Shown here: one piece after another, positions 3,835 through 33,433 of the stretch
How positions within the stretch are numbered: the first letter of the stretch is position 1
How the letters are laid out: every line of letters begins with the position of its first letter
Assembly: GCA_964563735.1 (NCBI GenBank)
Contig: CAZLXS010000002.1
Coordinates: 8,005 to 41,437 of the forward strand
Source of the DNA: an uncultured Candidatus Saccharibacteria bacterium
GTDB lineage: Bacteria > Patescibacteriota > Minisyncoccia > UBA6257 > 2-01-FULL-56-20
Length of the DNA stretch: 33,433 nt
Direction of reading: 5' to 3'
The notes under the pieces: generated by a model
Told to the model about the DNA's origin: nothing
The model's database searches: none
The model's input: the letters and a program-made list of their open reading frames with translations, nothing else
Translations under genes and position numbers: made by a program

Positions 3835-4704
3835 ATGAAATTTAAACATCCTATTTTATTTCTAATAGTTTTACTTTTGCTTTTTACTGGTTTTGTTTGG
3901 TGCCAGATTATTTTTGATGGACCAAATAAGTTGGCTGAAGCCTACTTTTTGGATGTGGGGCAGGGTGATAGTGAACTAGTTCGACTTGAAGGAGGGGTTT
4001 CGATCTTGACTGATGGGGGTCCGGATTTTAAGGTGGTGACGGAACTAGATAAAATTTTTAAATCTGGAAGTCGCTATATAGATTTAGTGTTTGTGACGCA
4101 TCCTCAAACTGATCATTTTGCTGGATTAGTGCATATGCTCTCTAGATACGAAGTGGGTGCTGTTATTTTTAATGGGAGAACTTCTTCGGCTAAAGAGTGG
4201 GAAGCTTTCATTGGTTTAATTAAAACAAAGAAAATTCCGCTCTTAACGGTTTTAGCTGGAGATTTGATTAGTTTTAGAGATTCAGTGATATCGATTCTTT
4301 CGCCAACTTCAGAATTTTTGATGAGTGGAGAGCCGAATGACGGAAGCGTGGTTGAGAAAATTAAGACTTCAAAAACCTCGATTCTTTTAACTGGAGACAT
4401 TACTTCGAGGGTGGAGGAGTATTTGCTTAAAAAATATTCTAAAGAAGAGTTAGAGGCGGATATTTTGAAGGTACCCCACCATGGATCTAAATATTCTTCG
4501 ACAGATAATTTTATCAAAGCGGTTAACCCAAAAGTGGCGATGATTGAGGTGGGAGAGGGTAATAGATATGGACATCCTGCGCCTAATACTTTAGAGAGAT
4601 TAAATTCTTCTGGAGTTTTAAAAATCTTTAGAACTGATTTGGACGGAACTATTCGAGCATTGGGCAGTGAGTCAGCGATTAATTTTTTTGTAGAGAAAAG
4701 ATGA
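3835..4704 (+). CDS. ComEC/Rec2-type metallo-beta-lactamase domain protein (one N-terminal TM, no channel domain)
   Basis: FLDVGQGDS, VTHPQTDHFAGL, LLTGD and KVPHHGSKYS, as in the C-terminal MBL domain of ComEC. 289 aa. Confidence 0.75.
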   Translation: MKFKHPILFLIVLLLLFTGFVWCQIIFDGPNKLAEAYFLDVGQGDSELVRLEGGVSILTDGGPDFKVVTELDKIFKSGSRYIDLVFVTHPQTDHFAGLVHMLSRYEVGAVIFNGRTSSAKEWEAFIGLIKTKKIPLLTVLAGDLISFRDSVISILSPTSEFLMSGEPNDGSVVEKIKTSKTSILLTGDITSRVEEYLLKKYSKEELEADILKVPHHGSKYSSTDNFIKAVNPKVAMIEVGEGNRYGHPAPNTLERLNSSGVLKIFRTDLDGTIRALGSESAINFFVEKR

Positions 4705-4705
4705 T

Positions 4706-4734
4706 TTGAATTATTTTATTCTTTTGGATATAAA
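4706..4734 (+). promoter_or_regulatory. sigma70-like promoter TTGAAT-17 nt-TATAAA for the small ORF
   Basis: Hexamers at 4706-4711 and 4729-4734 with 17-nt spacing, about 30 nt upstream of the ATG at 4764. Confidence 0.4.
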
Positions 4735-4763
4735 TATAATTAGAAACTCAAGGAGGATATTTT

Positions 4764-4931
4764 ATGAATATTGGAAAAAATCTAGGAGAAGAAGAGAAGC
4801 GAGTAGTTAAAAGTTTCTTCGATCAGATTAATGAGCATTGGAAGATGTTCACAAGGTTGACCGAGGAACGTTTCAGAGTTGGACTGGTTCGATTTAATAA
4901 GAAAAAGAACCGTCCAGTGCAAGTACATTAA
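4764..4931 (+). CDS. hypothetical small basic protein (55 aa), absent from the ORF track
   Basis: Strong SD AAGGAGG at 4750-4756, 7 nt before the ATG. It has its own promoter-like box and a downstream hairpin plus T-run. No homology recognised. Confidence 0.5.
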   Translation: MNIGKNLGEEEKRVVKSFFDQINEHWKMFTRLTEERFRVGLVRFNKKKNRPVQVH

Positions 4932-17152: not shown

Positions 17153-17479
17153 GTGATAACCGGAGACGATTATATAGCAAATCTAAAGAAAAAGGCCAAA
17201 GAATCAAGGGTTTATCAGAAGCACCAGTTGGTGGGTTTGCAGATTGCAGAGATTTTAAACGACAACAGACATAAAGCTTTATATATAAAATTAGCCAAAG
17301 AAAAGGACCAAGATAAACTAATCGGATTAGCTAGATCGGTGGCTGAACGAAAGAATATTAAAAATCTGGGAGCCTACTTTATGAGAATTATAACTAGCGA
17401 TGAAACTAGATCAAAACTTAAAAAAAATAATCACAGTCCAAAATCCAAAAGAAACAAAGATTTTAAGGGCAAAAACTAA
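17153..17479 (+). CDS. hypothetical basic protein (GTG start)
   Basis: 108-aa ORF with TACAAT 7 nt upstream. No motif recognised. The last 80 nt overlap def. Confidence 0.45.
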   Translation: MITGDDYIANLKKKAKESRVYQKHQLVGLQIAEILNDNRHKALYIKLAKEKDQDKLIGLARSVAERKNIKNLGAYFMRIITSDETRSKLKKNNHSPKSKRNKDFKGKN

Positions 17480-18806: not shown

Positions 18807-20888
18807 CTAGAGTTCTTTCTCAATATCCCAAACTTCTTTGCCAATATAAGCAGTAACCGTTTCTAAGTCTTTTAAGAGTTGTTCTTCCCTTAGCTTTTCT
18901 TCGGTGGCCAATTCTTTGGTAGCTTTCATTCTACGAACTAAACTCAATTCGGCTTCGATATCGCGACGAAGAACAACAAAACCTCTTCGGACTGATTCTT
19001 CGGCTTCACGAACTTCTTTTAAGATTTTACGCTTTTTGGTTTTTTGGCCAATTAGGTGGTAGAGAATAAAAATTATTAGGATGAGAAGAATAAGGCCACC
19101 AACACCCAAGATGACTAAGTAGAGCTTCTCGAAACTAACCCTACTTTCTCCGATTTGGATGGCGGTTTTGGATATTTCTAATTCATGTTTAGAGCTAGGT
19201 GGACTTAATTCTTCGCCCTGTTTTAATTGGGTCCAAATTTCGTACTTACCAGCTTCTAGGAATTTGGGAGCAGAGTAGAACCAAGCACCCTTGGAATCGG
19301 TCTTGATGCTCTGACTTTGAGCGGTGCCGGTTTCAATGTTTTGAATGTAAATAATTACTTCGGCTTCTGGTACATTAGAAAAACCTCCAATATAAAGGAT
19401 TTCATCGTTGGAGATGTTCTTGGGGAACAAGCTAACGATGGGCGGTTCAACCCGAAGAGGATTGGATGTTTCGGTCTGAGCTGAGGTATTTTTTATATTG
19501 CCATAGAACAAACTCCCCAAGATAAGACCAAGGATAATAATTTTGATCAGATTGTCTGATTTGTAATTTTTTTGTTTTTCGCGCAAGAGCTCAACTTTAT
19601 TGATTAGATTTGGATGTTTTAGGGGTCCAGCTTGGAGCAACTCTTCGATCTGGCGGTGCCAGCCCCAAACTTTTTTACCTAGATAGCCGAGAAGAGCAAT
19701 AATGAGAAGAAGGATAACCCAAACGATAGGCCAATCTATGGTGAAATTGCCTTTGATTCTTACGCCTTGGCCATTAATAATTTCTAAAGTCTTATTGGTG
19801 ATAGTTAATTTTTTAGAATTTTCAAAATAATTCCCAGCTTCGTCATAGGCTCTCGTAATAATTTCGTATTTGCCTAATTCAAATTTTTGAGTATAGGGCG
19901 AGGTGGCCTCGATGAAGAATGGGGTTAAGTTTTCCGTATCCTTATTGTTTGTAAGAGAAATGATTTTTATCTCGTAGTGATTAATTCCAGATGATTTGTC
20001 AGTAGTAATGAAGTTTAAAATTGGATATTGATTAATAGTTCGATCACTGGGAGAAATTTCGGTTTCAAATTCGGCTGGTGGAGTGTTATCTATTTTTATA
20101 GCATAGCTAGTGACTCCTCCCCAAGCTCCTTCGCGCAGAGATTTAATATGGAAATAATAAATTCCATCAGCTAGATCGTTGTAGGTAATAGAAGTTTTTA
20201 ATCCCTCGGAGATGTCGTCTGGATCGTCAATTGGCGAATTGTTTAAGACATAACTAAACCCAGTGGTGGCGGGAATGCCATCCCAGCGTAAAACAACCGA
20301 TTGATTCCTATACCATTTTTCTTGATCCGGATTAGTGGGAGAGACAACAACTGGGCCAGCTGGCGGAGGCAGGATAAGGTTATAAACTCCACCAGTTCGT
20401 TGACCCAAGATATCAGTCCCCTGCCCGTCGTTTAGAAGGACCCTAGAAGAATCCAAAACTTTTATAATGGCTGTTCCAGTATCTTTAACTCGGAAGGTGA
20501 CCGTAGAGATGACCCCTGATTCGGTATTAATACCGGGGGTTGGAATGGCGCCCTGAAATTTAAGCGTTCCTTCAGAATTAGAGAAACTGGGTTGATTAAC
20601 CCAGATCTGAATAAGAGATTTACCGGCTGTCGGATTAACTACTTGTATCTTGTCGGCTGGAAAACTTAAGTTGGCTTCGATTGCATTAACCGAACGTCCA
20701 CCGGTATTCACGTAAATCGAAACTGTAAAGGTGCTACCCACTGTGTAGGTTCCATCTGCACGACCAAGAAAAATAGAGGCCTGCCCACTCCCCGCTCCAC
20801 TAGTTTGATGAAAATTAAAAAATACAAAAAACAGAGCTAGAAAAACGCTCAAAAAGATTGAGTGCGGCGGAAATAGATTACGCCTCAT
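18807..20888 (-). CDS. polytopic surface protein: cohesin-like module, Ig/FN3-like domains, three further TM helices, cytoplasmic coiled-coil tail
   Basis: Cohesin-like GSTFTVSIYVNTGGRSVNAIEANLSFPADKIQVV (about 20394-20795). PDQEKWYRN...GIYYFHIK module. TM helices at about aa 386-404, 447-463 and 589-612. Charged heptad tail at aa 613-693. Confidence 0.6.
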   Translation of the reverse strand: MRRNLFPPHSIFLSVFLALFFVFFNFHQTSGAGSGQASIFLGRADGTYTVGSTFTVSIYVNTGGRSVNAIEANLSFPADKIQVVNPTAGKSLIQIWVNQPSFSNSEGTLKFQGAIPTPGINTESGVISTVTFRVKDTGTAIIKVLDSSRVLLNDGQGTDILGQRTGGVYNLILPPPAGPVVVSPTNPDQEKWYRNQSVVLRWDGIPATTGFSYVLNNSPIDDPDDISEGLKTSITYNDLADGIYYFHIKSLREGAWGGVTSYAIKIDNTPPAEFETEISPSDRTINQYPILNFITTDKSSGINHYEIKIISLTNNKDTENLTPFFIEATSPYTQKFELGKYEIITRAYDEAGNYFENSKKLTITNKTLEIINGQGVRIKGNFTIDWPIVWVILLLIIALLGYLGKKVWGWHRQIEELLQAGPLKHPNLINKVELLREKQKNYKSDNLIKIIILGLILGSLFYGNIKNTSAQTETSNPLRVEPPIVSLFPKNISNDEILYIGGFSNVPEAEVIIYIQNIETGTAQSQSIKTDSKGAWFYSAPKFLEAGKYEIWTQLKQGEELSPPSSKHELEISKTAIQIGESRVSFEKLYLVILGVGGLILLILIIFILYHLIGQKTKKRKILKEVREAEESVRRGFVVLRRDIEAELSLVRRMKATKELATEEKLREEQLLKDLETVTAYIGKEVWDIEKEL

Positions 20889-21769
20889 TACTTGTTTATT
20901 ATAGCTTGTTTTTTCCGAATAATCCTGTTTATAACTATTATAACGAAGATAAGGAGCAAAATAAGAACAGGCAGAAGATTAATCCAAAAAGCTAGCCAAT
21001 TATATACAATGGTTTCGGTTTTATTCCCAGACCAATCAACTACGATAATCCTAACAGACCAGACATTTTTAGAGATTGAAGTTGGATTTATGATCTCTTG
21101 TGCTTTGCTCCAACTAAACCACTGCTTTCTTTCTGCGGTTATTGATTTAATTCCTGAATCTAGATCGTTAACTTTAAAAATTAAAAGATTTTGACTGGGG
21201 GTGATGGGGTCTTTAGAGATTTCTGCGAATTCTATGATGGGAGCAACCCTATCTATACTTGTTTCTTCTTGATTAATGTTGTTTGAATTTTTAGCATTGA
21301 ATGTAATCTTTTTAAGATTGGGAATAATTTTAGTCCCTTTTCCATTAGCTAGATAAAGGGAAGCATTTTTTATTTGAAGATCGATAGATCCTTGTTTGAT
21401 TGGTAGAACATTAAGACTAAGCAGGAGCCCTTTTTGTCCAGAAAAGGGGTTTGTACTGCCCCCACTCACATTAATTTTTCCATCCCCGTTTATTTTTGGT
21501 TCGCTTTGTTTTACATCAATAATAGATCCACCAGTATTCACGCTTTGAATATGAATTTCTTCGGGATTATATAAAATTTCGAACAAATAAGCGTTGATCG
21601 GTTGAGTTGAATCGATTAGCACGCTTATTTCTGAAATCCGATTGATTTCTGGGTTTACTTCGGTTTTGAAATAAATCGAAGCGTAGTTTTCTAGAGCAAA
21701 AACTTTTAAACCAAAAAACAAAGCAATAAAAAATAGGGCGTAGATAATTTTTTTAAATATTTGGATCAT
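20888..21769 (-). CDS. C-terminally membrane-anchored protein with cohesin-like module and Ig-like domain
   Basis: ISEISVLIDSTQPINAYLFEILYNPEEIHIQSVNTGGSIIDV (about 21320-21694). C-terminal TM followed by RIIRKKQ. Confidence 0.5.
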   Translation of the reverse strand: MIQIFKKIIYALFFIALFFGLKVFALENYASIYFKTEVNPEINRISEISVLIDSTQPINAYLFEILYNPEEIHIQSVNTGGSIIDVKQSEPKINGDGKINVSGGSTNPFSGQKGLLLSLNVLPIKQGSIDLQIKNASLYLANGKGTKIIPNLKKITFNAKNSNNINQEETSIDRVAPIIEFAEISKDPITPSQNLLIFKVNDLDSGIKSITAERKQWFSWSKAQEIINPTSISKNVWSVRIIVVDWSGNKTETIVYNWLAFWINLLPVLILLLIFVIIVINRIIRKKQAIINK

Positions 21770-21770
21770 C

Positions 21771-22715
21771 TTATTTTGTCCAGTAGTACATCATAATGGA
21801 AATATCTGGAAAATCGACAATTCGGTTGCTGTTAAAATCGAATCTAGAAATGGAGCTTCCAGTTTTTTTGTAATAATACAGAAGAATTGAGAGATCAACG
21901 ATGTCAACTCGACAATCTCCATTTAAATCAACGATCTGGAGCTTGAGATTATCGCAGGGTGATCGTGGTTTAGGTTTTACAATATCTGGCTCTGGATTTA
22001 TTGGAGAAATGTAGCCAGTGCTTCCACCGCTATTACTCCCCCCTCCCCCGCCACCACCAGATCCTCCACCACCGCTAGGAGTAGTGGTGCTTGCTGCAAT
22101 GAGCGTTGGGTATCGATTGTAGGCGCTAAGCAGGGTGCCTGAAGAGTAAACAACCCTAAAATACCAATTAGAATCTTGATTGGCTGAATTGTTTTGGATA
22201 ACCCAATCCCACTCTCCGTATTCAGTGGGGTTGATAGCGGATGGACTAGCGGCGGATGGATTAGATTCTCCATAAGACTCTCCGACGGTAGAGTTAGAGA
22301 GTAGATTGTCAACAATAATCTGGCCGTCAGCTACACTAGGGTTATCAAAAAAAATCCAAGCGCTAGAGCTACTTAGATCGGTATAAGTTCCACCTAAGAC
22401 GTCAGAATATTGGAGCTTAAGAGTGGTTCCGGCACCAATTAACTCTCCAGCGGCGAGATTGATCCTTAGGCGAAGCGTTCCATTTGTAGTTGGGGTGCTA
22501 GTTCCTGTATTTTCACTCGAGAGAGGAATTGTGGGCGTGAGAGCATCCTCGTTTCTATACCAACGATAATTAGCCTGAGTTAAAACGGCTGTCGAGGAAA
22601 CAATAGCAGAGGTGTTGACGTTGATGTTGTTTTGGGATTTAACTTCAAAAGAAGATAGAAGAATAATTCCTACCGATACTATTAGGAATAAAAACCATCT
22701 ATCTTTTTGGTTCAT
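21771..22715 (-). CDS. secreted beta-sandwich module, Gly linker and C-terminal dockerin-like repeat pair
   Basis: VDLNGDCRVDIVDLSILLYYY and FDFNSNRIVDFPDISIMMYYW (21774-21968). The N-terminal module (YRWYRNEDAL..LRLRINL..WYFRVV) is paralogous to giant-protein aa 1267-1460. Confidence 0.65.
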   Translation of the reverse strand: MNQKDRWFLFLIVSVGIILLSSFEVKSQNNINVNTSAIVSSTAVLTQANYRWYRNEDALTPTIPLSSENTGTSTPTTNGTLRLRINLAAGELIGAGTTLKLQYSDVLGGTYTDLSSSSAWIFFDNPSVADGQIIVDNLLSNSTVGESYGESNPSAASPSAINPTEYGEWDWVIQNNSANQDSNWYFRVVYSSGTLLSAYNRYPTLIAASTTTPSGGGGSGGGGGGGSNSGGSTGYISPINPEPDIVKPKPRSPCDNLKLQIVDLNGDCRVDIVDLSILLYYYKKTGSSISRFDFNSNRIVDFPDISIMMYYWTK

Positions 22716-23632
22716 CTACCTTTTTTATTTTTGAATCTTCGATAGAAAATAAAGGCGATTATTAATACACCCAAGACGCCCAGATAGTAAATCTTGAATC
22801 TACTTAGGTGATTAATAATTTTAGAGAATGGCCCAGAAAGAGATCCGGCCTTCAAAACTTTAAAAACTGTTCTTTGTTGACCAATAACCTTGCCTTCTTT
22901 AACGAAACTTACTGAGCCCCAATAATCCCCTACCCCCAAATAGAGATTAATCGGAAATTCAAAAAGAAATTCTTCACTTGAAAATGGTTCGACTTCTTTA
23001 AATCCTTCATTTTTTTGAATATAGGCGAGACGAATACTCCCAAATTGGTCAAAAAGTTCATAGGTGGCGCTATCAATTGCTTCGGGAACGTTTCCATTAT
23101 TAACAAACTTAACCTGAACTCGAGGAGACCAACCTTCTTCAATATCCAAGAGATTTACAACGGGCATCTCGTACTCTCGAAAAATCCCCTCGCCCACTGT
23201 AAAACCGATCTTAACCTCTACGCCTAAAGCAATAGTGATTTGACCAGTTTTATCCAGAGGCATTCCAGAAAAATTAACTAAACCCTTATAAACTCCTAAA
23301 TCAGCTCCTTTGGGAACATTAATAACCACTTCAACCGGATACTGTCGAACTCCCTTGGGGATGATCATTTCTTTTCCGCCATTTATCACAAACCAATTTT
23401 TAACTCGGTCGTTAATTTGAAGATTAGTTATAATCCTCAAATCTTCGGATGGATTATCTTGAACCAGATAGATGGTTTGGATGTATTTTGATCCCGGAAC
23501 AAGGTGCCCACTACCAACGAATGGCGGAGAAACTCCGAAAGCAGCCGAAGTTAGGGTCGGATTTAGAGCGAACAAAACCAGAGACACCAGCCCGATCAAT
23601 AAAATGATCGCTTTTTTTAATTCAAAAGGCAT
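22712..23632 (-). CDS. surface protein with signal peptide, two Ig-like beta domains and a C-terminal TM anchor
   Basis: AAFGVSPPF after the signal peptide, ...VPKGADLGVYKGLVNF..., and C-terminal IYYLGVLGVLIIAFIFYRRFKNKKGR. ATGA overlap with the next gene. Confidence 0.55.
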   Translation of the reverse strand: MPFELKKAIILLIGLVSLVLFALNPTLTSAAFGVSPPFVGSGHLVPGSKYIQTIYLVQDNPSEDLRIITNLQINDRVKNWFVINGGKEMIIPKGVRQYPVEVVINVPKGADLGVYKGLVNFSGMPLDKTGQITIALGVEVKIGFTVGEGIFREYEMPVVNLLDIEEGWSPRVQVKFVNNGNVPEAIDSATYELFDQFGSIRLAYIQKNEGFKEVEPFSSEEFLFEFPINLYLGVGDYWGSVSFVKEGKVIGQQRTVFKVLKAGSLSGPFSKIINHLSRFKIYYLGVLGVLIIAFIFYRRFKNKKGR

Positions 23633-23692
23633 CGTTCTTATAGGAGAATTTTATACCTTTATAGCTTAGGGTGCAAATTCTCTTTTTAATTA

Positions 23693-24691
23693 TTAACCTG
23701 ACCAAGCCGAGGTAAAGAGATTAACTCCAGTGTAAGTACCGGTTGCGGTGGCTGGTGGTACAGCTAAACCCCAAAATGTAGTTTTCGTGACGTTGGTGGT
23801 GCTGGTTGGAATGGCCATAGTGGAACCAGTGACATCGGTAGCGGTTTCTTGAAGGAGTTGTTCAGCTCCACCATAGGTGAATGTGGAGGTGGCGTAGTGT
23901 TGGGAAGATGTGCTAATGCTATTGGACCCATTAGTTAAAGTGGAGATGGCAGAGAGCTTGAGGGTGGTGGTTGAGTTTCCGGCATTGGTACTCGTGGCCG
24001 TTTGATTGGTAGACCCAGTATTAGTGTTAGCTGGAACAGTTCCATAATTGATTGACGAAGTGGTGACATTAATAGCGGTTAAAACATTTAATTCCACCCC
24101 AGAAGAATCTGCGCTTCCCGTTGCATTGGTTGGATCTTTGAAGACGAGTGTAGCCATCCAGTTTTGAGACGGATAGGTAGAGCTAGCACCATTGGTTGCA
24201 TCGGCGAAATAATATATTCCAAAGGTGGTGGTGACGTTTTGGGTTCCAGCACTGCAGGAGCTTGAGGCAGTAAACGTAGTTAGTATGTAACAATTTCGAT
24301 TATCTGCAGTTGTCATACAGGTTGAGGAGGTAACCCCAGAACGATAAACCAAGATGGTGCTAGTGCCTCCGGTGATATCAGTACAACCATTGTAGTCGGT
24401 GATGGTGGCGGCAACGCTAATCGCAGTAGTGGCGTTTGGAGTAAGCGTGATTGTTCCACCATTATTAAGGGTGACGGCTGTGACGAGCGGGCTTGCATTT
24501 CCGACTATAACGGTGGTACTGGCTGTGACGGTACTCGAAGCGGCTTGCGCTATAGCATAATTGATACTGTTTTGATTCTGATTTAAATCTATAAAGAAGG
24601 TTTGAAAAATTCCCAAGAAACTAATAATGCCGATTGAAAATATAATAAACAAACCGGCCTTTCCAGATTGGTTTTCTATGAATTTTTTCAT
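23693..24691 (-). CDS. secreted Thr/Ser/Asn-rich beta-sandwich protein, paralog of giant-protein aa 1461-1689 plus its last ~30 aa
   Basis: Four conserved Cys (GCTDI..STCM..NCY..SCSAG vs GCSDV..FDCS..NCY..NCAGG). Shared SGVELN, SSINYG, TSSQH(Y/F)ATSTF and FWG(L/V).VP..TGTY(T/S)G. Confidence 0.6.
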   Translation of the reverse strand: MKKFIENQSGKAGLFIIFSIGIISFLGIFQTFFIDLNQNQNSINYAIAQAASSTVTASTTVIVGNASPLVTAVTLNNGGTITLTPNATTAISVAATITDYNGCTDITGGTSTILVYRSGVTSSTCMTTADNRNCYILTTFTASSSCSAGTQNVTTTFGIYYFADATNGASSTYPSQNWMATLVFKDPTNATGSADSSGVELNVLTAINVTTSSINYGTVPANTNTGSTNQTATSTNAGNSTTTLKLSAISTLTNGSNSISTSSQHYATSTFTYGGAEQLLQETATDVTGSTMAIPTSTTNVTKTTFWGLAVPPATATGTYTGVNLFTSAWSG

Positions 24692-24700
24692 CTTAGTTTT

Positions 24701-24709
24701 ATTATAGCA
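24701..24709 (-). promoter_or_regulatory. extended -10 box TGCTATAAT, 9 nt before the ATG
   Basis: The minus strand reads AGTGCTATAATAAAACTAAGATG. Confidence 0.45.
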
Positions 24710-24741
24710 CTTTGTGGTTTGCGGAATATGTGGATAACTAT

Positions 24742-27700
24742 TTAAGGACTATAAGATCCAGAAAAAGTAATGGTTCCCGAGTAGGTTCCGGTTGGATTTC
24801 CGGCTGGAACTTCAACACCCCAGAAAATATCACTGCTACTTCGGTCATTAAATGTAGGCGCGTAAAAAACTGATGAGGTAGCTAGATAATTTTCTCCACC
24901 ATCTGTATACGCTCCCCCACTGACATAAGAATATCCATTGTAAGTGACTAAAGCTCGATCAAGAAAGTTTGAATTAGGAAAAATAGGAACTGGGGTACTG
25001 GTGGCCCAGTTAAAACTTGTCCCAGATATAGTTGAGAGATAAGCATAAGTAGAGGTTGATCCAGGAGCTCCTAAGCTATAAAAAGAATCTTTAGAATTCG
25101 AAAGAATATTGAAGGTGGTATATGCGGATGGAAGAGGCGTGCTGGCAGTAACCCAACTTCCCAGAGTCCCATCCGAATTAATGGGGGCGTAAATTATAGA
25201 CGAAGTGACAGCAGACGGCGCTCTCCCACCAAACACATAAATATTCCCGTTTCTTTCGTAGGAAGTATGATCCTTTCGAGCTACGGGTAGAGCGGTGGTT
25301 GTGGACCAAGTACCAATCAACCCACTAGAGTCAATTGGAGCATAGAGAACTGTGGAGGTGGCAGTACTCCCAACAGGAGTTCCTCCGATCGCATAGATAT
25401 AGCCGTTTTTTGCGACGATACTATGATTACCTAGGGCATTAGGTAAATCATCTAAAAGGGAAGCGTTCCAGAAACCAATGGTTCCGTTGGAATTTATATC
25501 TGTAACATAAACTCCTGCGGTGTGGGTTGGCGAAGTGGAGGTACTTCCTCCGACTAAATATAACCTCCCATTGTACACAGTAAGAACCGGACGAATTAAT
25601 GCGGCTGGAAGCTTGGTAGTATTACTCCAAGATGAAATGGCTCCGGTAGAACTATTTATAGATCCATAGAGAATTGTTGATGTAACACCACCTGAGACTC
25701 CAGTGTCACCTCCAAAAATATATAGATAGTTATTATATGCCAAAGAAGAATGTTGAGCATTTATATAAGGCAAAACCGTAGTAGTAGACCAAGAACCAAG
25801 ATGGTTGAGGATTTTTTGATAGGCCGGCAAAGAAATTCCACTAATTGTGCTATTGGTTCCACTTAGTTGTTGTTCTGTTCCGCCAAAGATAAAAGTTGAA
25901 GTGGCAAAGTGTTGCGAGGAGGTGACGATAGAGTTGGCGTTAAAATTAAGAGCGGTACCTCGAACCAGTGCAGACGACGTTGCATTGCCGGCATTTTTGA
26001 TTGGAGCTATTTGATTTTTCTGACCAGTATTGGAATTAGAATTTACTTGGCCATAGTTTATGCTACTAGTTCCAACTTCTATAGCAACGAGAGTATTTAA
26101 CTCAACTCCACTGGCAGTACTACTGGTTTGATTACTACTCGAATCTCTAGCTTCAACTTTGGCGATCCAATTTTCGCCGGAAAAAGACGAGCTGGTGTCG
26201 GTTGGTTGAGCAAAATAATAAATATCTACAGTGGCGGTTGCATTAGCAGAAGCTCCACCAGCACAGTTATTGGTAGTAGTGGTAACTCGATAGCAGTTTA
26301 AGGGATCTTCTGAGCAATCAAAACTAAGCCCAGAGCGATAGACGGTGGTAGTGACATTGCCACTCGTAAAAACATCGGAGCAACCACTGCCATCGGTTAA
26401 TGTAAAATTAACCACGATAGTAGTGGTAGTGTTTGGGGTTAGGGTGATAACATTTCCATGATTTAACGAAGTGGCAGAAAGATTGGGATTTGTGTCTGTG
26501 GCTGATGTGTAGATAGATGGGTAGGTACAGACACTATTATCAACACACGGGGTGGCTGGCCAGCTGGTTTGTTGACGATAGACTGGAGAATCTTGACCTA
26601 CATCATACATCCTAAAAAAATAAATCTGGTTACTTTCGGTATTGTTAGCTTCAATGGAAAATTCTAGTTCAAGAATAGTGGTTGAGGCGTGATCCATATT
26701 AGCGTTCGCTGCGGCATTATTACTTGTGGTCCACCAACCACTTACCGTTGAGCTACTAAGCAGAGTTCCTCCGGTTATTAATTCTCCATCATCGCAAGTA
26801 GCAGCTCCAGTATTACAGTCAAAATATCGCCATATAGTTGAGCTGCCGACATTACCAACATCCGTCCAAATTGTTGACGATGCATCAGGGGTAGTACTGG
26901 AAGTGAATTGCAATTTTTTTCTGGAATCGGTTTGACTGTTTCCCCCTAGCTCTGCCATATTAAAACGTAATCTAACCTGACCAGCTACGCCACTTATAGT
27001 AGCCGAAGTGTTTTCTGCTGCTAGGGCTGGAGAAGGACTTCCCGCAGTAGAAGTTCCACTGTATAGTCGCCAGTTTAAAGACCATGGGGAATATGGCTTG
27101 TAGGCAAAATCAAATCCATTATTTTCCCAGATAACAGTATTGCTATCCCCAGAACTAGCGACTCGAGTACCCAATTCGGCAGATAAACCACTAGTAGTGA
27201 ATGCCCCACCATCCCACCTATGAGTTCTTAGATCATTATCACTATCTACTCCAACCCGCATCATTTCATCATCATTAGGCGATGGAATTAATTTTCTATT
27301 TGCTCCGTCATCGGTCCAGCCACTTGCTATATCAGCAACGGCTGAAAATCCACCGCCTGGAGTCCAGGTTACAAAATCAGCTGCATCGGCTGCGGCATCA
27401 TCGTTGTAAATAATTAGAGCAGTGGAGGTACTATTGCCAGTCCCAAATCTTTCCCAAGCCACAGTTACGCCTACTGCGGCTTTGTCTTCTAATGATGTAT
27501 CTCCTGTCCCTAAATTCCAGGCTGCAGTGCCGGTGGCCTTCCAGATCGCTGGCCAGCCCATCGTAGCTGTTGAGCTGGAAGTTAAACCAACAGCTACTCT
27601 GTCACTTTGTGGATCTCCATCCATAACAACCCAGATACCACGACTAGCTGTGATTGCAGGCATAAGAGTGCTGGTTGTGTCCCAAACCCCGTTTACTAAT

Positions 27701-30700
27701 TTTTTATACGAGAAGGGGGTAGTAGAAGTGGCTGAGCTTGAAGCAAAAACTACGACAGCGTTTCCTGATAGAGTTTCCCAAGCGCCATCAAATGGACGCC
27801 CACTAGCAGAAAAAGCATTCACCGTGATTGTTGTTGTAGAGATAACACTAGAACCATCCCAAACTCCGGCATAGATATCCTTAGCATTACTAATGTTCAA
27901 AATTAATATCTCATTAGAACGATTGTTGGTTAGATGTTCTCCCTTTGGCACCAAACGAACCCAACCAGGAGAAATAAGAGAAGAACAGCTTCCCGCAACG
28001 AAGCAAAAATTAAAACTATTTTCTGTGCTCGATACATTTCCATCCCAAGTTATATAATAAAGACTTTCTGCTACTGCCCCTGTAGCTCTCGCTACATCTT
28101 TTGTGTATACAATAAATGCTCGACCGGATAATTGTTCATAGGCGATGTCAAATGATTGATTACATGACCCAAATACGGTATTACAGACCTGAGTATAGGT
28201 TGTAGAAGCAATACTTATGATACTAGACCAACTAGTTCCGTTGTATCTTGTAATATCGAGTCGTCCATTGTCTTTAAGATTTCCAACTAAATATTCATTT
28301 CTGGTTGGAGAAGCGCGAACAACAACGTGTTGTACCTGAGATGTTTCTGCTGTCGTATCTATTGAGGTAGCTTCTGCGCTCCATGTGCTTGTTGTTGTTA
28401 GGAAGCGAACGTTAACGTTGTCAACATCAGTAGTATCACTATAGGCGAGCAAACTTCCAGTGTTGACCACAGCATCCGAGGCGATTTGCCATTGCCTTGA
28501 TTCTTGCCAGACTTCAATGTCGGGATCATTATTTTTTAATTTTAATGCACCGAGCTTAAATAATTCCGGACTGATGTCGGGGCCTTTAAATTCATAAACC
28601 AAATCCCTGCCTTCTCCTGACTTTAAATCTAGATTCCACTGGAGCACCTTGGTTTCCGAATTATCCTTCTCCCCCCTTATATTAAAATCATTGGAATCAG
28701 TGATTTCAAAAAGTGCTGGGACAAATTCTTCTACTATGCCGTCAAAATCTTCGTTGGCTTTTATTTTTATCGTGACAGTATATTTGTCGGGGGGGTAGGT
28801 ACGCGTCGGAGCGCTTCGTTCTACATCAAAACGCGGTGGATTTTCTACGGAGAATTGTTCCTCAATGGAACGAGGGCCGTTCTTAGTTTGCGCATTGATG
28901 TTTAAACGATAGATTCCGATTTCGGATAGATTGGAAATGGAAGTTTTGTAATCTGGAATTGGACTTCCCCCACTATTCGGACCACAGGAAGCTGATCTTT
29001 CTATGGAGCCATCATTAGTATTTCGAAAAATTTTTAAACCTGCAGGAGTTGTAATGGTTAGATTTATTTCTGCATCGCAAATAGTGTGACCTCCGTCATC
29101 TAGAACTCCAAAATGAAGCTCCGCTTCATCGCCAAGACTAAAAATGGATTTATTACTATTTACCGCTAAAACTCCCCAAGAAAAATCCGATTCGGTGGTA
29201 TAAACCACACCGTTCCGTAAAATCCAAATTTTCATTTTATATTTTCCTGGGCGAAAAAATCTTTCTGGCTCAGCAACACTAATCCGTAGTCGATTGTTGA
29301 CAGTAAGAATAGTGGGGTGGAAATTAGTAGATTTATTTTTGGGATCAAAAATTTGAACGGCAATGGGGTTGTCGGCGGTAAGAAGTTCGCCCTCTCCTGT
29401 TTGAGCGGTAGCTTTTTTAACTTTAAAAAAATCGAGTAATCCCCGACCATCGCGCACTAATTGCCATAATTGTTTTTGAACCGAAGGACGCGCCGATACC
29501 GGCGCGTTTAGAATTTCAGGATTTTCTGGATGATTATCGCCTCCTTGATCTAATTGATTATTCGAATCCTCTTCGGGAATTGGAGCTTCGATTGATGGTG
29601 GAGCTGGAAGAGCGTCTAGATCTAAATCAAAACTTGGGTTTTCGTTTGATCCATAGGTTCCGCCTTCTCGGACCGGTGAGAGATCTTGATTTTCCGGAAG
29701 AGTGATGACCTGAACTCCGTTTGGAAGAATAACATTGGTAATGACCTTTCCGGTTTCGCTTGGTTTTTTGTTTTCTGGATTAATGATGGATGGAATCTCG
29801 TAATTAACTTCTATGAACATTCCATCTAGATAAACTTTAGGTAGTTTCTCCAGAGTGGTGTCGATTCCGATAAGACTAATTTGAATTTTTGATAACTCCG
29901 CCCAACTTAATTTTGGCAGAGGAAGAGTGAGATTCTGAAAATTAAGAGGATTAACCTTGCCCACGGAGAGCCAATTTGAACCATCTAGACTATAACGAAC
30001 TTCAAGAAAATTATTATCTGGCGCCGGTGGAATATATTCTGGAAGTGGAATCTGATTCTCTACAACCGGTTCGATTGAGGTAGCTGATTGATCACCTTGA
30101 TCTTCTTTTAGCTCTACTGGTTCGAGTGGAGCGATAATAGACGGTATCACAACTGGATCACTTGATTGGTCTAGTTCGTTTGACTCGGGTTTTTCTCCTG
30201 GTTTTTCCTCTGGAACTTCGGGATTTTGTGGAGCTATGGAGCTTGGTTCTTCTTTTTGGGTGATGACCGGCGTATCACTACTTGGCTCTGATTCTTCGGC
30301 GAGTGCATGAGATACGAGAGGAATTCTCCAGAGCGCTGATTTTTCCGAATCTTCGCTTACAGGCTCTATTTTTTCATCAACTTTATTTTCATTACTTTCA
30401 ATAACTTCAAGCGATTCATTAAACAATGTTTCTGCTTCTACTAGATTTTCAGCTCGCCAAACCAAGGTTAAGCCGGCGCTCACAACGTTGCCTTGTCCAC
30501 TAAAATTATCTGGCAAAAATTGACCGCAAAAAATTTGGTCAGTCTTGTTTTTCAAAACAGCAGAATTATCTTCGGTTAAGGCAATCTCGGAGTTTTTTAT
30601 ACTTTCGGATTCGCCCTGAGCTTTCTCTGGGTTTTCCCAACTACCTAAACAGGTTTGAGGACTAAAATCAGCAATTTCGGCGTGAGTGAAAACTTTATTG

Positions 30701-30885
30701 GCTAAGATAATAATAATTAATCCGACGAGAACACTGCATCCGATAAAGGCGGCTTTTTTGTAAGGTAAAAATTTATTTTTCCTTAAATCAACGACGTGAG
30801 AATCGTTTTCTCCTAACAAGAATTTTGAGATTTTTTTCAAATCAAAAAAGCCCGTTTTTTTTCTTTTGTCTAGAAAAGACGGCAT
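24742..30885 (-). CDS. giant (2047 aa) N-terminally anchored surface protein with two propeller-like regions
   Basis: Uninterrupted ORF. TM at aa 45-64, Pro/Glu-rich linkers, and a Trp-punctuated roughly 7-repeat region at aa 799-1266. Six Kelch-like blades (YLYIFGG, RLYLVGG, YIYAIGG, NIYVFGG, SFYSLG, YSYVSGG) at aa 1690-2011. Confidence 0.75.
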   Translation of the reverse strand: MPSFLDKRKKTGFFDLKKISKFLLGENDSHVVDLRKNKFLPYKKAAFIGCSVLVGLIIIILANKVFTHAEIADFSPQTCLGSWENPEKAQGESESIKNSEIALTEDNSAVLKNKTDQIFCGQFLPDNFSGQGNVVSAGLTLVWRAENLVEAETLFNESLEVIESNENKVDEKIEPVSEDSEKSALWRIPLVSHALAEESEPSSDTPVITQKEEPSSIAPQNPEVPEEKPGEKPESNELDQSSDPVVIPSIIAPLEPVELKEDQGDQSATSIEPVVENQIPLPEYIPPAPDNNFLEVRYSLDGSNWLSVGKVNPLNFQNLTLPLPKLSWAELSKIQISLIGIDTTLEKLPKVYLDGMFIEVNYEIPSIINPENKKPSETGKVITNVILPNGVQVITLPENQDLSPVREGGTYGSNENPSFDLDLDALPAPPSIEAPIPEEDSNNQLDQGGDNHPENPEILNAPVSARPSVQKQLWQLVRDGRGLLDFFKVKKATAQTGEGELLTADNPIAVQIFDPKNKSTNFHPTILTVNNRLRISVAEPERFFRPGKYKMKIWILRNGVVYTTESDFSWGVLAVNSNKSIFSLGDEAELHFGVLDDGGHTICDAEINLTITTPAGLKIFRNTNDGSIERSASCGPNSGGSPIPDYKTSISNLSEIGIYRLNINAQTKNGPRSIEEQFSVENPPRFDVERSAPTRTYPPDKYTVTIKIKANEDFDGIVEEFVPALFEITDSNDFNIRGEKDNSETKVLQWNLDLKSGEGRDLVYEFKGPDISPELFKLGALKLKNNDPDIEVWQESRQWQIASDAVVNTGSLLAYSDTTDVDNVNVRFLTTTSTWSAEATSIDTTAETSQVQHVVVRASPTRNEYLVGNLKDNGRLDITRYNGTSWSSIISIASTTYTQVCNTVFGSCNQSFDIAYEQLSGRAFIVYTKDVARATGAVAESLYYITWDGNVSSTENSFNFCFVAGSCSSLISPGWVRLVPKGEHLTNNRSNEILILNISNAKDIYAGVWDGSSVISTTTITVNAFSASGRPFDGAWETLSGNAVVVFASSSATSTTPFSYKKLVNGVWDTTSTLMPAITASRGIWVVMDGDPQSDRVAVGLTSSSTATMGWPAIWKATGTAAWNLGTGDTSLEDKAAVGVTVAWERFGTGNSTSTALIIYNDDAAADAADFVTWTPGGGFSAVADIASGWTDDGANRKLIPSPNDDEMMRVGVDSDNDLRTHRWDGGAFTTSGLSAELGTRVASSGDSNTVIWENNGFDFAYKPYSPWSLNWRLYSGTSTAGSPSPALAAENTSATISGVAGQVRLRFNMAELGGNSQTDSRKKLQFTSSTTPDASSTIWTDVGNVGSSTIWRYFDCNTGAATCDDGELITGGTLLSSSTVSGWWTTSNNAAANANMDHASTTILELEFSIEANNTESNQIYFFRMYDVGQDSPVYRQQTSWPATPCVDNSVCTYPSIYTSATDTNPNLSATSLNHGNVITLTPNTTTTIVVNFTLTDGSGCSDVFTSGNVTTTVYRSGLSFDCSEDPLNCYRVTTTTNNCAGGASANATATVDIYYFAQPTDTSSSFSGENWIAKVEARDSSSNQTSSTASGVELNTLVAIEVGTSSINYGQVNSNSNTGQKNQIAPIKNAGNATSSALVRGTALNFNANSIVTSSQHFATSTFIFGGTEQQLSGTNSTISGISLPAYQKILNHLGSWSTTTVLPYINAQHSSLAYNNYLYIFGGDTGVSGGVTSTILYGSINSSTGAISSWSNTTKLPAALIRPVLTVYNGRLYLVGGSTSTSPTHTAGVYVTDINSNGTIGFWNASLLDDLPNALGNHSIVAKNGYIYAIGGTPVGSTATSTVLYAPIDSSGLIGTWSTTTALPVARKDHTSYERNGNIYVFGGRAPSAVTSSIIYAPINSDGTLGSWVTASTPLPSAYTTFNILSNSKDSFYSLGAPGSTSTYAYLSTISGTSFNWATSTPVPIFPNSNFLDRALVTYNGYSYVSGGAYTDGGENYLATSSVFYAPTFNDRSSSDIFWGVEVPAGNPTGTYSGTITFSGSYSP

Positions 30886-30892
30886 TTCTCTA

Positions 30893-30901
30893 ATTGTAGC
30901 A
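30893..30901 (-). promoter_or_regulatory. extended -10 box TGCTACAAT, 7 nt before the ATG of the giant gene
   Basis: The minus strand reads GTGCTACAATTAGAGAAATG. Confidence 0.45.
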
Positions 30902-30963
30902 CTAAAACACTCAATCCAGATTCTTTGGACTGTGGATTATTCTTCTTTAAAACTAGATTAGGT

Positions 30964-33171
30964 TTAACTGCAAACCGGAGTTGGTCCACTACTAAAAATA
31001 TAGTTGATTAGATAGACAGCGTCCGAGATGTTAATCATGCCGTCGCCATTCGCATCGGAATAATTATCCCCTCTTGGAGCAGGACCGCCGTTAAAAATAT
31101 AGTTGATTAAGTAAACAGCGTCGGAGATATTCACCCCATTATCACCATCAGCATCGCCACAAACTCCTATAGGACCTTCGATTACAGTGAGTGGAATTCC
31201 CATGGAAACCCCCTTGTTTCCAGCTAGATCAGTGGCTTCGGCATAGATGGTTTTTGCGCCAATAGTTGGGAAATGGACTAGAGCTTCAAATGGAAAAATA
31301 TTGTCTAGCGCGAGGAAACCATTCTCCCCAAATCCAACTATTTGAAAAAATTCTACCTTACTAATTCCACCCTGATCTGTAGCTGAAACCTTGATAGTTG
31401 CGTCTTGGGGAACGGAGCTATTGGAAATTGGTTCGGTAATTGATACAACCGGAGAGGTAAAATCTGTTTTGATCAAATTAACATCTAGAGTGACGTGCTC
31501 TGGATCAGCACTTAAAACCCCGATAATGTTTCCGCTCAGTGGATCAACGAACACTCCACCAGCCTCAAGCGCTACGTTTAAATTACTGCCGGGTGGTGTT
31601 GGATCAATAAGCAGGGATTGATTCGGTGCGAAACCAGATGCGGTTTTTATTGTGTGCATAGTGACACCAGAGAACACATTACTATTAGTGCCGATAGAAT
31701 TGTCTGCTCCAATTGGTTGGCGATATTCTATAAAAAGATAATCGTTCGCTGACCTCTGGATTTTTAAAGCTTTAAACCCACCTAGATTAGTTTCAATTGG
31801 TTCTAGGGTGTAAGTTCCACTTTGAGTGACATTTTGAATTCGTCCGCCACCCATCCAACCAACATATTCCTTATGAAGGGCATTGAAGTGGCCAGGAATA
31901 AAAGATCCGCCCATTACATCATAGAGATCGCCGTATTCATCAATTAAACAATTGCTGTTGATCGGATTACTACCACAAGACCAGAAACTAGCATGCCTCT
32001 CACCGAAAGCGTGCCCAATTTCGTGAGAAAAAACAAAGTGATTTGTCATATAGCTCGCAAGCATAAATGATGTTCCAATAGAAACTGGACCTTCATTAGT
32101 TTCCACGGTTATTTTGCCAATGGTAGAAATTCCAGACCACCCACAAGCTGGACCGAACGGAGACACTACGGCTAAATAGTCGTACTGATGGAAATCTACG
32201 GTTGAATCAATTAGAGGAATAAGCGCGTTTAAAACAGAGTTAAAATCGCAAGTTTGATTGATTGGAATAGTATACCAATCACTTCCCGATGGCCCCGCCA
32301 AAACAGTACCAGTTAAACTAGCTTGGCCGTAAGAATTTTCTTGATAATAGTTTTTAGAATTAGTGAAAATTAGGTTATTAACTCCTGATCTTGTGAGATT
32401 CGGCTGAGGAGATCCTTGGAAGTTAGCTAATACAGCTAAGACTCTTTGATTGCCAAGAATTGGATCACCGGCCTGAGAGCCACCAATCTCAATATCAGAC
32501 CTACTAGGCCCATTATCACTGATTATTTCATTAGGAATAATGTAGTCATCAATCTGAGTACCCCTTACCTTTATACTAGATCCACCTTTTGATTTGGTGA
32601 TAGGAGAATTAGGATCGCTTACTAAAATATTAAAAACTTCTCCAGTACTAGTTCTTAATTTATAAGTTTCAGTTGATTTCTTGCTATCAGGAAAGTCCGC
32701 GATAAGGATTTCTAATTTTCCATTAAGCTCTTTGGTTTTTTCTAGACAATTCCTAAAAAGATTTTCAATCGTTACTGTTTCTTGATTTGACAACTTATAG
32801 GATCCGGCGCTGGCAGATTCGATCTTAGAGAGGTGACCCAAGGCCTGCTTTCGATTGACTAAAAGACTTAAGAGGTTGTTTTTATCGGTGACGCTTTGAG
32901 TTTTTTGATAGAGCGCAAGCTTCTCCGAAATACTAGTATTTAAAGATTTTAAAACATTTTTCGATTCGTCGATGCTTAATTTAAGCAAGGCTGGTTTATT
33001 AATTAATTCAAAACTATTTTCAAGCGCAATTGGGCAACTGCTATTATCTATCACCGCTGGAGCGTTCCTAGCTTCGGTGAGATTAGACGAGCTTAATCTT
33101 GCGACGGCTAAAACTAAAACTATGGCTACAACGAAAAGCCCTTTCCTTAGATTATTAGATTGATAATTCAT
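30964..33171 (-). CDS. secreted metzincin-type zinc metalloprotease with Ig-like domain and C-terminal dockerin pair
   Basis: HEIGHAFGERH (31993-32025) fits HExxHxxGxxH. An M6-like upstream segment reads VLAVLANFQG..YYQENSYGQASLTG. Dockerin repeats GDADGDNGVNISDAVYLINYIF and SDANGDGMINISDAVYLINYIF lie at 30967-31167. Confidence 0.7.
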   Translation of the reverse strand: MNYQSNNLRKGLFVVAIVLVLAVARLSSSNLTEARNAPAVIDNSSCPIALENSFELINKPALLKLSIDESKNVLKSLNTSISEKLALYQKTQSVTDKNNLLSLLVNRKQALGHLSKIESASAGSYKLSNQETVTIENLFRNCLEKTKELNGKLEILIADFPDSKKSTETYKLRTSTGEVFNILVSDPNSPITKSKGGSSIKVRGTQIDDYIIPNEIISDNGPSRSDIEIGGSQAGDPILGNQRVLAVLANFQGSPQPNLTRSGVNNLIFTNSKNYYQENSYGQASLTGTVLAGPSGSDWYTIPINQTCDFNSVLNALIPLIDSTVDFHQYDYLAVVSPFGPACGWSGISTIGKITVETNEGPVSIGTSFMLASYMTNHFVFSHEIGHAFGERHASFWSCGSNPINSNCLIDEYGDLYDVMGGSFIPGHFNALHKEYVGWMGGGRIQNVTQSGTYTLEPIETNLGGFKALKIQRSANDYLFIEYRQPIGADNSIGTNSNVFSGVTMHTIKTASGFAPNQSLLIDPTPPGSNLNVALEAGGVFVDPLSGNIIGVLSADPEHVTLDVNLIKTDFTSPVVSITEPISNSSVPQDATIKVSATDQGGISKVEFFQIVGFGENGFLALDNIFPFEALVHFPTIGAKTIYAEATDLAGNKGVSMGIPLTVIEGPIGVCGDADGDNGVNISDAVYLINYIFNGGPAPRGDNYSDANGDGMINISDAVYLINYIFSSGPTPVCS

Positions 33172-33178: not shown

Positions 33179-33187
33179 ATTGTAGCA
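33179..33187 (-). promoter_or_regulatory. extended -10 box TGCTACAAT, 7 nt before the protease ATG
   Basis: The minus strand reads TTTGCTACAATTTAAAACATG. Confidence 0.45.
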
Positions 33188-33242: not shown

Positions 33243-33261
33243 TTTATTATTTACATTGCTG
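33243..33261 (+). repeat. 19-nt direct repeat TTTATTATTTACATTGCTG, copy 1
   Basis: Identical to 33379-33397, which runs into the first 2 nt of tRNA-Gln. Confidence 0.85.
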
Positions 33262-33335
33262 ATAGGGTCGCCTGCCTGCCCTGCCTACCGGCAGGCAGGC
33301 GGTAGGCAGGTCTAACGGTAGGACAGCGGCCTTTT
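33260..33335 (+). pseudogene. tRNA-like 5' fragment interrupted by a 40-nt GC palindrome
   Basis: TGATAGGGTCG[40-nt insert]TCTAACGGTAGGACAGCGGCCTTT parallels TGGGGGATCGTCTAATGGTAGGACATCGCCCTTT of the adjacent tRNA-Gln. No T arm or 3' acceptor strand follows. Confidence 0.5.
33270..33310. repeat. GC-rich palindrome (family 2), copy E
   Basis: GCCTGCCTGCCCTGCCTACCGGCAGGCAGGCGGTAGGCAGG matches 15243-15284 except for one indel. 11-bp stem with a 9-nt loop. Confidence 0.85.
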
Positions 33336-33363
33336 CCTTCGGAGAAGGATCTGCCTCTGGCAG
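33336..33363. repeat. GC-rich two-hairpin repeat, copy C
   Basis: CCTTC-GGA-GAAGG, ATC, then CTGCC-TCT-GGCAG. Stem changes relative to copies A and B are compensatory. Confidence 0.75.
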
Positions 33364-33378
33364 TAGAAGCATCTTATT

Positions 33379-33397
33379 TTTATTATTTACATTGCTG
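33379..33397 (+). repeat. 19-nt direct repeat, copy 2
   Basis: Identical to 33243-33261. Confidence 0.85.
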
Positions 33398-33433
33398 GGG
33401 GATCGTCTAATGGTAGGACATCGCCCTTTGAAG
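33396..33433 (+). tRNA. tRNA-Gln (anticodon UUG), 5' part only, cut by the window end
   Basis: Hand fold: acceptor TGGGGGA, U8, D arm GTCT/AATGGTA/GGAC with G18-G19, anticodon stem TCGCC, loop CTTTGAA (U33, TTG, A37). U1 and the overall 5' end resemble E. coli tRNA-Gln. Confidence 0.75.

Follow-up and report, generated by a model that had tools for sequence, protein, structure and literature searches.

The question raised by this locus is what seven adjacent genes for apparently exported proteins build at the surface of a member of the Patescibacteria. The genes, referred to here as g1 to g7, lie between positions 18807 and 33171 of a 33,433-nucleotide stretch of contig CAZLXS010000002.1 (the window) from an uncultured Candidatus Saccharibacteria bacterium. 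An earlier note, made from the letters of this DNA alone, described them as a cohesin-dockerin surface apparatus encoded by seven consecutive minus-strand genes with hydrophobic N termini, and seven open reading frames (ORFs) of this kind were indeed found at exactly those positions. To our knowledge, how Patescibacteria attach to or interact with other cells is largely unknown beyond a few cultured Saccharibacteria. We consider the chance slightly better than even that the locus encodes a cell-envelope display platform of a Patescibacteria clade, in which two kinds of membrane anchor hold proteins carrying two kinds of tag. What is conserved is a unit comprising one or more variable giant proteins, a protein of 332 amino acids (aa), a protein of 306 aa, a protein ending in a dockerin, and two membrane proteins with a single cohesin each, next to fmt and def.

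Conservation of the gene set

Relatives of the locus were obtained from a scan in which each GTDB species was represented by a single genome, which gave 33 loci, and from three metagenome contigs (L001 to L003). The seven window proteins and five family hidden Markov models (HMMs) were mapped onto all ORFs of these loci. The genomes of the relatives are labeled as Parcubacteria, Paceibacteria, Liptonbacteria, or Minisyncoccia. All loci of sufficient length showed the same gene order. First come one to four large proteins that terminate in the module that makes up g3 (the g3 module), then g3, g4, the dockerin protein, and two, sometimes three, cohesin membrane proteins, usually followed by fmt, def, and the gene for an S41 protease. 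The gene order in L001 to L003 was identical to that of the 33 species loci. The seven genes had been proposed to form one cluster, and this grouping holds for a g2-like gene followed in order by g3 to g7 in all sufficiently long loci of the 33, but not for g1. No related locus of sufficient length lacks the five-gene core, and chance co-location is excluded.

Variability is confined to the g2 slot, which differs among loci in the number of copies (1 to 4), their length (approximately 345 to 2,140 aa), their domain content (Kelch here and Laminin_G in L003), and their N-terminal parts. A constant core together with a variable g2 fits a fixed platform that presents a diversifying binding protein.

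Membrane anchors and tags

A hydropathy scan gave an N-terminal hydrophobic segment in all seven proteins and additional membrane helices in three of them: one at the C terminus of g4, one at the C terminus of g6, and three in g7. These three proteins have membrane anchors of their own; g1, g2, g3, and g5 have the N-terminal hydrophobic segment alone, which is presumably a signal peptide. Each of the four nonanchored proteins carries a tag, either a dockerin (g1 and g5) or a g3 module (g2 and g3).

The g2, g3, and g4 proteins

The g3 protein (23693-24691, minus strand; 332 aa) is predicted to be secreted and consists solely of the g3 module, a double immunoglobulin (Ig)-like unit. It is rich in Thr and Ser, and alignment of its family showed four conserved Cys residues and a conserved N-terminal VxVGNxxP stretch. 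The AlphaFold2 (AF2) model of g3 (predicted local distance difference test [pLDDT], 78) contains two Ig-like beta-sandwiches, and the matches of this model in the PDB by Foldseek were generic only, being antibody-like or RbmA-like tandem-Ig proteins. The relatives of g3 fall into 285 clusters, all unannotated, and no Pfam match was obtained in 40 members of the family. Searches of PDB sequences with g3 and g4, whether as single sequences or as family profiles, gave nothing useful, and NCBIfam gave no match for g3, g4, g5, or g6.

The same module was found at the C terminus of g2 (24742-30885, minus strand; 2,047 aa), the giant and variable putative surface protein. In BLASTP, residues 68 to 292 of g3 aligned with residues 1467 to 1686 of g2 (47% identity; E value, 2e-42), and the last 44 residues of g3 aligned with the last 44 of g2 (E value, 2e-4). 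Since both g3 segments align on the flanks of a Kelch propeller, the C terminus of g2 is deduced to be a g3-type module with the propeller inserted in a loop, the two parts of the module being placed at aa 1465-1686 and 2003-2046 by BLASTP and the family HMM scan. The propeller itself, which had been read from the sequence in the earlier note, could be verified with Pfam, which located it at aa 1701-1959 (25009-25785, minus strand; PF24681; E value, 3e-13; 50.0 bits, at the cutoff of 50) and also found Kelch_1 in three stretches (31.2 bits against a cutoff of 20.1). The g3 module is split in the same way in eight or more of the related loci (L001, L004, L005, L008, L010, L014, L015, and L033). 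In front of the module, g2 comprises the N-terminal hydrophobic segment, a long unassigned region, and a beta-sandwich designated rwy (aa 1272-1427), and the placement of rwy immediately before the g3 module, as in g2, recurs among the large proteins of 10 or more related loci.

The g4 protein (22712-23632, minus strand; 306 aa) comprises a predicted signal peptide, two tandem Ig-like sandwiches, a C-terminal membrane helix, and a basic tail; in the AF2 model (pLDDT, 86), a long helix at the C terminus likewise follows two Ig-like sandwiches. The g4 family comprises 1,271 clusters at 50% identity, and for the g4-profile search of the representative library only strong matches were listed. The homologues all come from Patescibacteria-type metagenome genomes and lack Pfam annotation. 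In Pfam, weak matches to Alph_Pro_TM were found in 8 of 29 family members (best E value, 1.3e-4). Some distant g4 relatives are fused to FG-GAP and PKD domains or carry an SH3 domain after the membrane-helix region (P0315, P0321, P0289, and P0324), which suggests that the g4 fold may also serve elsewhere in the cell envelope. The earlier note had listed the 332-aa and 306-aa proteins as further surface proteins; they are the two most conserved members of the core rather than bystanders, and their surface exposure is presumed.

Cohesins and dockerins

Two cohesins and two dockerins had been proposed for the locus, and all four were recovered, by evidence of different kinds. The cohesin of g7 (18807-20888, minus strand; 693 aa) was identified directly by Pfam at aa 41-156 (window positions 20421-20768; PF00963; E value, 3.6e-10; 40.6 bits against a cutoff of 24.1), and the g7 family profile matched the solved cohesin 4uyp among PDB sequences. 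The protein further comprises a predicted signal peptide, Ig-like domains, membrane helices at approximately aa 382-400, 447-465, and 591-609, and a charged C-terminal tail; a Big_13-like domain, weakly matched in Pfam, lies between the last two helices. The g6 protein (20888-21769, minus strand; 293 aa) gave no Pfam match itself and is assigned a predicted signal peptide, a cohesin at approximately aa 25-161 (window positions 21287-21697), an Ig-like domain, and a C-terminal membrane helix (aa 262-280). Its cohesin was recognized by profile-profile comparison: hhalign of the alignment of 29 positional relatives of g6 against the N-terminal 200 residues of the g7 family gave a probability of 99.9% (E value, 9.6e-34; 139 columns). 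Pfam Cohesin was matched directly by 6 of these 29 relatives. The g6 family gave weak profile matches to the solved cohesins 5aoz and 5m2o; the matches of the g6 and g7 cohesin families to solved cohesins were weak throughout (E values, 0.0025 to 0.015), and the Clostridium perfringens NagJ cohesin was among them. The earlier note spoke of membrane scaffoldins. Both proteins are indeed held in the membrane by their own helices, but a single cohesin per carrier protein was found in all loci, and neither is therefore a multicohesin scaffold.

Several variants of the cohesin genes were observed. A third cohesin gene lies between g5 and g6 in L007 (11858-13150) and L032 (11824-13197), and in the same two loci a small ORF of 177 to 197 aa that ends in a dockerin lies upstream of the giant gene (L007, 3972-4505; L032, 3882-4475). 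Some g6 orthologues have an N-terminal extension of approximately 135 to 170 aa before the cohesin (L002:11900-13204, L024:12131-13432, and L023:2075-3211), which may be a gene fusion or an artifact of gene calling. The precomputed Pfam annotation of the L002 orthologue is PDDEXK_3, a nuclease-like assignment that is odd in a surface protein.

The dockerin that is always present is that of g5 (21771-22715, minus strand; 314 aa), a predicted secreted adaptor in which a Gly-rich linker joins an rwy beta-sandwich (aa 40-204) to the dockerin at the C terminus (aa 258-314; window positions 21774-21944). In this copy, Dockerin_1 scored 17.2 bits, below the cutoff of 22.9, but both D-x-N-x-D...D calcium-loop repeats are readable (DLNGDCRVDIVD and DFNSNRIVDFPD), Dockerin_1 was matched by 27 of 34 positional relatives of g5 (best E value, 7.4e-9), and all loci long enough to include this position have a terminal dockerin there. 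The N-terminal domain had been called lectin-like. This label is not supported: the domain matched no known family and is homologous to a module inside g2 (residues 1271 to 1381; BLASTP E value, 2e-6). No catalytic domain was found by Pfam in g5. The protein in the g5 slot of L035 (10962-11825; Liptonbacteria) has, in place of rwy, the first half of a g3 module ahead of its dockerin.

The second dockerin belongs to g1 (30964-33171, minus strand; 735 aa), a predicted secreted M6/M11-like metzincin with a Big_7 Ig domain. The dockerin (aa 672-725; 30997-31158, minus strand) matched PF00404 above the cutoff (E value, 1.6e-10; 41.4 bits against 22.9) and has two calcium loops, DxDGD and DxNGD. The description of g1 as a dockerin-ended metzincin agrees with the Pfam matches, in which Reprolysin_4 (28.2 bits against a cutoff of 22) and Big_7 were likewise above cutoff, and with the motif HEIGHAFGERH, which conforms to the metzincin zinc-binding pattern HExxHxxGxxH; NCBIfam gave a weak M6 domain match. 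Since g1 was not among the matches of the g5-type dockerin HMM (E values of 1e-3 or less), its dockerin is probably of another subtype. The place of the metzincin in a conserved set could not be upheld. The gene adjoins the cluster in only 1 of the 33 related loci (L008), as well as in near-identical contigs, and its wider relatives, which carry Peptidase_M11, mostly lack a dockerin, this being present only in the closest ones. At best, g1 is a lineage-specific add-on, an accessory cargo outside the conserved core. Among the nearest dockerin-less relatives is P0349 (35% identity), from a Candidatus Aenigmarchaeota genome (a DPANN archaeon), which hints that secreted proteases may be exchanged among ultrasmall symbionts.

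A proposed display platform

Beyond the domain identities, topology, shared modules, and conserved gene order described above, the binding steps, exposure at the surface, and any role in host contact are inferred. In the first kind of anchoring, the membrane-held cohesins of g6 and g7 would capture proteins ending in a dockerin. The cargo would always include g5, with its rwy or fibronectin type III (fn3)/Ig N-terminal domain joined to the dockerin, and in this lineage the metzincin g1 would be a second cargo. In the second kind, the membrane-tethered tandem-Ig protein g4 would hold the g3 module of g3 and g2; this is the simplest wiring since, of the anchors, g4 alone lacks a cohesin. The outward-facing, ligand-binding, and diversifying part would be formed by the variable N-terminal parts of g2 together with its Kelch propeller. 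The g5 protein may serve as a bridge from the g3-module proteins to the cohesins, a role proposed because rwy is fused to the g3 module in many of the giants and to the dockerin in g5. Modules have evidently moved between the two halves of the system, rwy occurring both in g5 and beside the g3 module, and half of a g3 module being joined to a dockerin in L035. The co-location of cohesin and dockerin genes in all loci is a circumstantial sign of binding.

The proposed pairing of g4 with the g3 module is supported by their joint duplication, by the like arrangement of the WxL clusters of Firmicutes, and by the presence of WxLIP among the fold matches of g4. In L016 (positions 1-4803), the pair formed by g4 and a gene ending in a g3 module is tandemly duplicated, and since the two g4 paralogues are only 50% identical, the duplication is deduced to be old and retained. 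The WxL clusters encode a small and a large protein with a common WxL domain beside WxLIP, in which DUF916 and DUF3324 lie between a signal peptide and a membrane helix (PMC10599100). The comparison set comprised seven such clusters from Firmicutes plasmid records (L040 to L046), in which the order was large WxL protein, small LPXTG protein, small WxL protein(s), and WxLIP; the order of large protein, small protein, and g4 in all Patescibacteria loci parallels this arrangement. In the Foldseek search with the g4 model, ranks 2, 4, and 5 (E value, 2.5e-9) were held by the Enterococcus faecium WxLIP structures 9i1y and 9i25, which represent WxLIP alone and in complex with a long WxL protein.

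The locus thus resembles the WxL/WxLIP (Csc) system of Lactobacillales and Bacillales in that a large and a small protein with a common C-terminal module are followed by a membrane-anchored Ig protein, and in that the latter has approximately 300 to 360 aa, begins with a signal peptide, and ends in a membrane helix after two Ig-like domains. It differs in that the shared module is a double Ig-like sandwich rather than a WxL domain, and in that the Patescibacteria locus lacks an LPXTG protein and a sortase and has cohesin-dockerin genes in addition. The resemblance is taken as a functional analogy, and distant homology of g4 and WxLIP is unproven.

Several data weigh against the platform as proposed. 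The WxLIP structures were found amid many generic tandem-Ig proteins, with TM-scores of approximately 0.3, and hhalign of the g4 family against the WxLIP family gave a probability of 70.6% over only 41 columns. In Pfam, DUF916 and DUF3324 were matched by none of 29 g4 family members. Comparison of the g3 family with the WxL family by hhalign gave a probability of 0.7%. The fixed position beside fmt, def, and cell wall genes would fit a housekeeping envelope structure equally well, and the association of these organisms with hosts is assumed from knowledge of the phylum. A reading of the locus as a divergent WxL cluster was considered and was rejected for g3, given its hhalign result; none of 40 g3 members matched WxL in Pfam, and no WxL structure was found in the top 50 fold matches of g3. 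The rejection does not extend to g4, of which one distant relative gave a subthreshold match to WxLIP_HBD (E value, 0.038).

A bolder form of the platform, which we regard as doubtful, would make g2, g3, and g4 a Patescibacteria-specific anchoring system that is either independent of WxL/WxLIP or very distant kin to it. A tandem-Ig protein would capture a double-Ig tag, perhaps by strand complementation, the whole would be wired to the cohesins through g5, and the system would act as the main host-attachment organelle of the clade, with the giant as an exchangeable adhesin.

Genetic data from a cultured relative were also considered. Southlakia epibionticum has an essential dockerin protein, SEML1_0315 (Wang et al. 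2023, PMC10633639). It was rejected as a member of a comparable cluster, its neighbors being an alpha/beta hydrolase gene and a tRNA gene, and because of this different genomic context the Southlakia data are not transferable.

Alternative interpretations

The proteins may instead form a surface fiber or pilus-like polymer by beta-strand complementation, although this was judged improbable. The g3 protein would be the subunit that donates its VxVGNxxP stretch, and the tip adhesin would be g2, whose C-terminal g3 module lacks that stretch and is preceded by large N-terminal binding domains. The membrane-tethered g4 would be a chaperone-like assembly factor or the base, and the cohesin-dockerin pairs would tie the fiber to the membrane. 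This interpretation is consistent with the N-terminal stretch of mature g3, which is highly conserved (V61, V63, and P68) and lies outside the strands of the monomer model, the first of which begins at residue 69; residues 40 to 60 of the model have pLDDT values below 50, and the sequence of g2 differs at the place corresponding to the stretch. It is further consistent with the extended -10 promoter that g3 has of its own, with the chaperones CfaA, DraB, FimC, and CsuC and fimbrial subunits among the fold matches of g4 (E values, approximately 1e-7), and with weak PapD-like Pfam matches in two g4 family members. However, these fold matches are again generic tandem-Ig proteins with low TM-scores, the g3 model has two complete-looking sandwiches, and neither an usher nor a sortase nor a pilin-type signal was found in the cluster with Pfam and NCBIfam.

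To a similarly low degree of probability, the locus may encode a housekeeping envelope structure, such as the attachment of an S-layer-like lattice or the organization of the cell wall, that would maintain cell integrity and have no host specificity. Its constant chromosomal position argues for this since the cluster adjoins fmt, def, the gene for a ctpB-like protease, the L9 and L27 genes, and Mur and FtsW genes in many species, and so do the five-gene core, found in all related loci of sufficient length, and a g3 that is Thr/Ser-rich and separately promoted. The g2 slot argues otherwise, being highly variable and carrying adhesin-type domains (Kelch and Laminin_G) that are typical of the binding of outside partners. 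Moreover, the SLH, LysM, and SH3b cell wall-binding families had no Pfam match in any of the seven proteins, SH3b occurring only in distant g4 relatives.

A cellulosome-like enzyme complex for the degradation of host or environmental polymers, with the metzincin among the docked enzymes, is very improbable, for although cohesin-dockerin systems classically organize enzymes and the dockerin-tagged metalloprotease g1 is encoded directly upstream, g1 is the sole enzyme and is missing from 32 of the 33 related loci, the always-present dockerin protein g5 is devoid of catalytic domains, no more than one cohesin occurs per cohesin protein, and no glycoside hydrolase or carbohydrate-binding module was found by Pfam in any of the seven proteins.

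Relation to known systems

The statement that the locus is not a cellulosome is in agreement with the present data, in which the carriers have single cohesins and are anchored by membrane helices rather than through SLH or LPXTG, neither of which had a Pfam match in the seven proteins. Noncellulosomal cohesin-dockerin modules are already known in general, an example being the glycosidase complexes of C. perfringens. As in those systems, cohesin and dockerin are encoded together, the dockerin is at the extreme C terminus of secreted proteins, and a glycoside hydrolase or carbohydrate-binding module is lacking. The locus differs from them in that the cohesin carriers are integral membrane proteins with one cohesin each, in that five or six genes form a fixed operon-like unit across many Patescibacteria, and in that the constant dockerin protein is nonenzymatic and coupled to the cohesin-independent g2/g3/g4 module. 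The closest solved relatives of the g7 and g6 cohesins are those of cellulosome anchoring scaffoldins (ScaC [4uyp] and Ruminococcus flavefaciens [5aoz and 5m2o]), and the logic of a cell-bound cohesin that would capture a dockerin-tagged protein is shared. In contrast to these scaffoldins, there is no multicohesin scaffold, no SLH or sortase anchoring, and no carbohydrate-active enzyme in the locus, and the matches are weak.

Chaperone-usher pili are comparable in that the two-Ig g4 resembles periplasmic chaperones in its fold matches and in that the adhesin ends in a subunit-like module behind a large binding part. They are unlike the present system in that the cluster has no usher and g4 is membrane-tethered, the fold similarity being generic and the PapD-like signals weak. 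An outer membrane is not expected in the phylum Patescibacteria.

No description of the locus was found in the literature searched on cohesin or dockerin in Patescibacteria, Parcubacteria, or the candidate phyla radiation. What appears to be new is the conserved operon-like unit in Patescibacteria, the membrane-integral single-cohesin proteins as presumed dockerin receptors, the ever-present nonenzymatic dockerin adaptor, and the coupling to a WxL-like triad of families without Pfam models. The five core genes and the variable giant, found in at least 33 species-level lineages, provide a defined gene set for the question of cell contact in Patescibacteria, and Pfam lacks a model for two of the core families. 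If the platform is real, it would add single-cohesin receptors integral to the membrane of a monoderm, noncellulolytic lineage to cohesin-dockerin biology, and it would point to a surface-anchoring logic parallel to that of the Firmicutes WxL system.

Promoters and flanking regions

The last four genes are packed tightly, as had been noted, with a 4-nucleotide overlap, a 1-nucleotide gap, and a 1-nucleotide overlap taken directly from the coordinates. The first three genes had each been credited with their own TGCTAYAAT box, and this was confirmed: extended -10 boxes were found 7 nucleotides before the ATG of g1 (TGCTACAAT; 33179-33187, minus strand), 7 nucleotides before that of g2 (TGCTACAAT; 30893-30901, minus strand), and 9 nucleotides before that of g3 (TGCTATAAT; 24701-24709, minus strand). 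Exactly three such boxes are present in the window against an expected 0.47, and three were reached in none of 100 shuffles. Since the boxes are only 7 to 9 nucleotides before the ATG and no Shine-Dalgarno sequence was found between box and ATG in any of the three genes, leaderless or near-leaderless mRNAs are implied for g1 to g3. The boxes before g3 homologues in related loci are arranged as before g3. In L001 to L036, 49 of 110 gene-strand TGnTAnAAT boxes lie 4 to 12 nucleotides before the start of an ORF of at least 100 aa, from which leaderless transcription appears to be common in the clade; the genes with such a box near their start across the related loci include g2, g3, g4, g7, ctp, and others.

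Upstream of g1 (window positions 33243-33433), two exact copies of TTTATTATTTACATTGCTG were found, each followed by a plus-strand sequence resembling the 5' part of a tRNA (a 25-nucleotide repeat, 88% identical). The second tRNA-like sequence is a tRNA cut by the end of the window (Rfam tRNA, 19.7 bits, 3' end truncated). The first, which ARAGORN did not call, is preceded by a perfect 12-bp GC-rich hairpin. Of the three other assemblies with g1, two (L037 and L038) end approximately 240 to 350 nucleotides upstream of this gene.

The rest of the window encodes housekeeping functions: alaS, Mur ligases, ftsW, murG, gltX, an M23 peptidase, L27, L9, a CtpB-like S41 protease, def, and fmt. An ORF of 108 aa without a Pfam match (window positions 17153-17479, plus strand) lies just upstream of def and overlaps its predicted start at 17400, and an unannotated ORF of approximately 98 aa is found at the matching position before def in L001 and L002. 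Since the first 39 residues of the def ORF lie outside its Pfam match, which starts at residue 40, the true start of def is probably further downstream.

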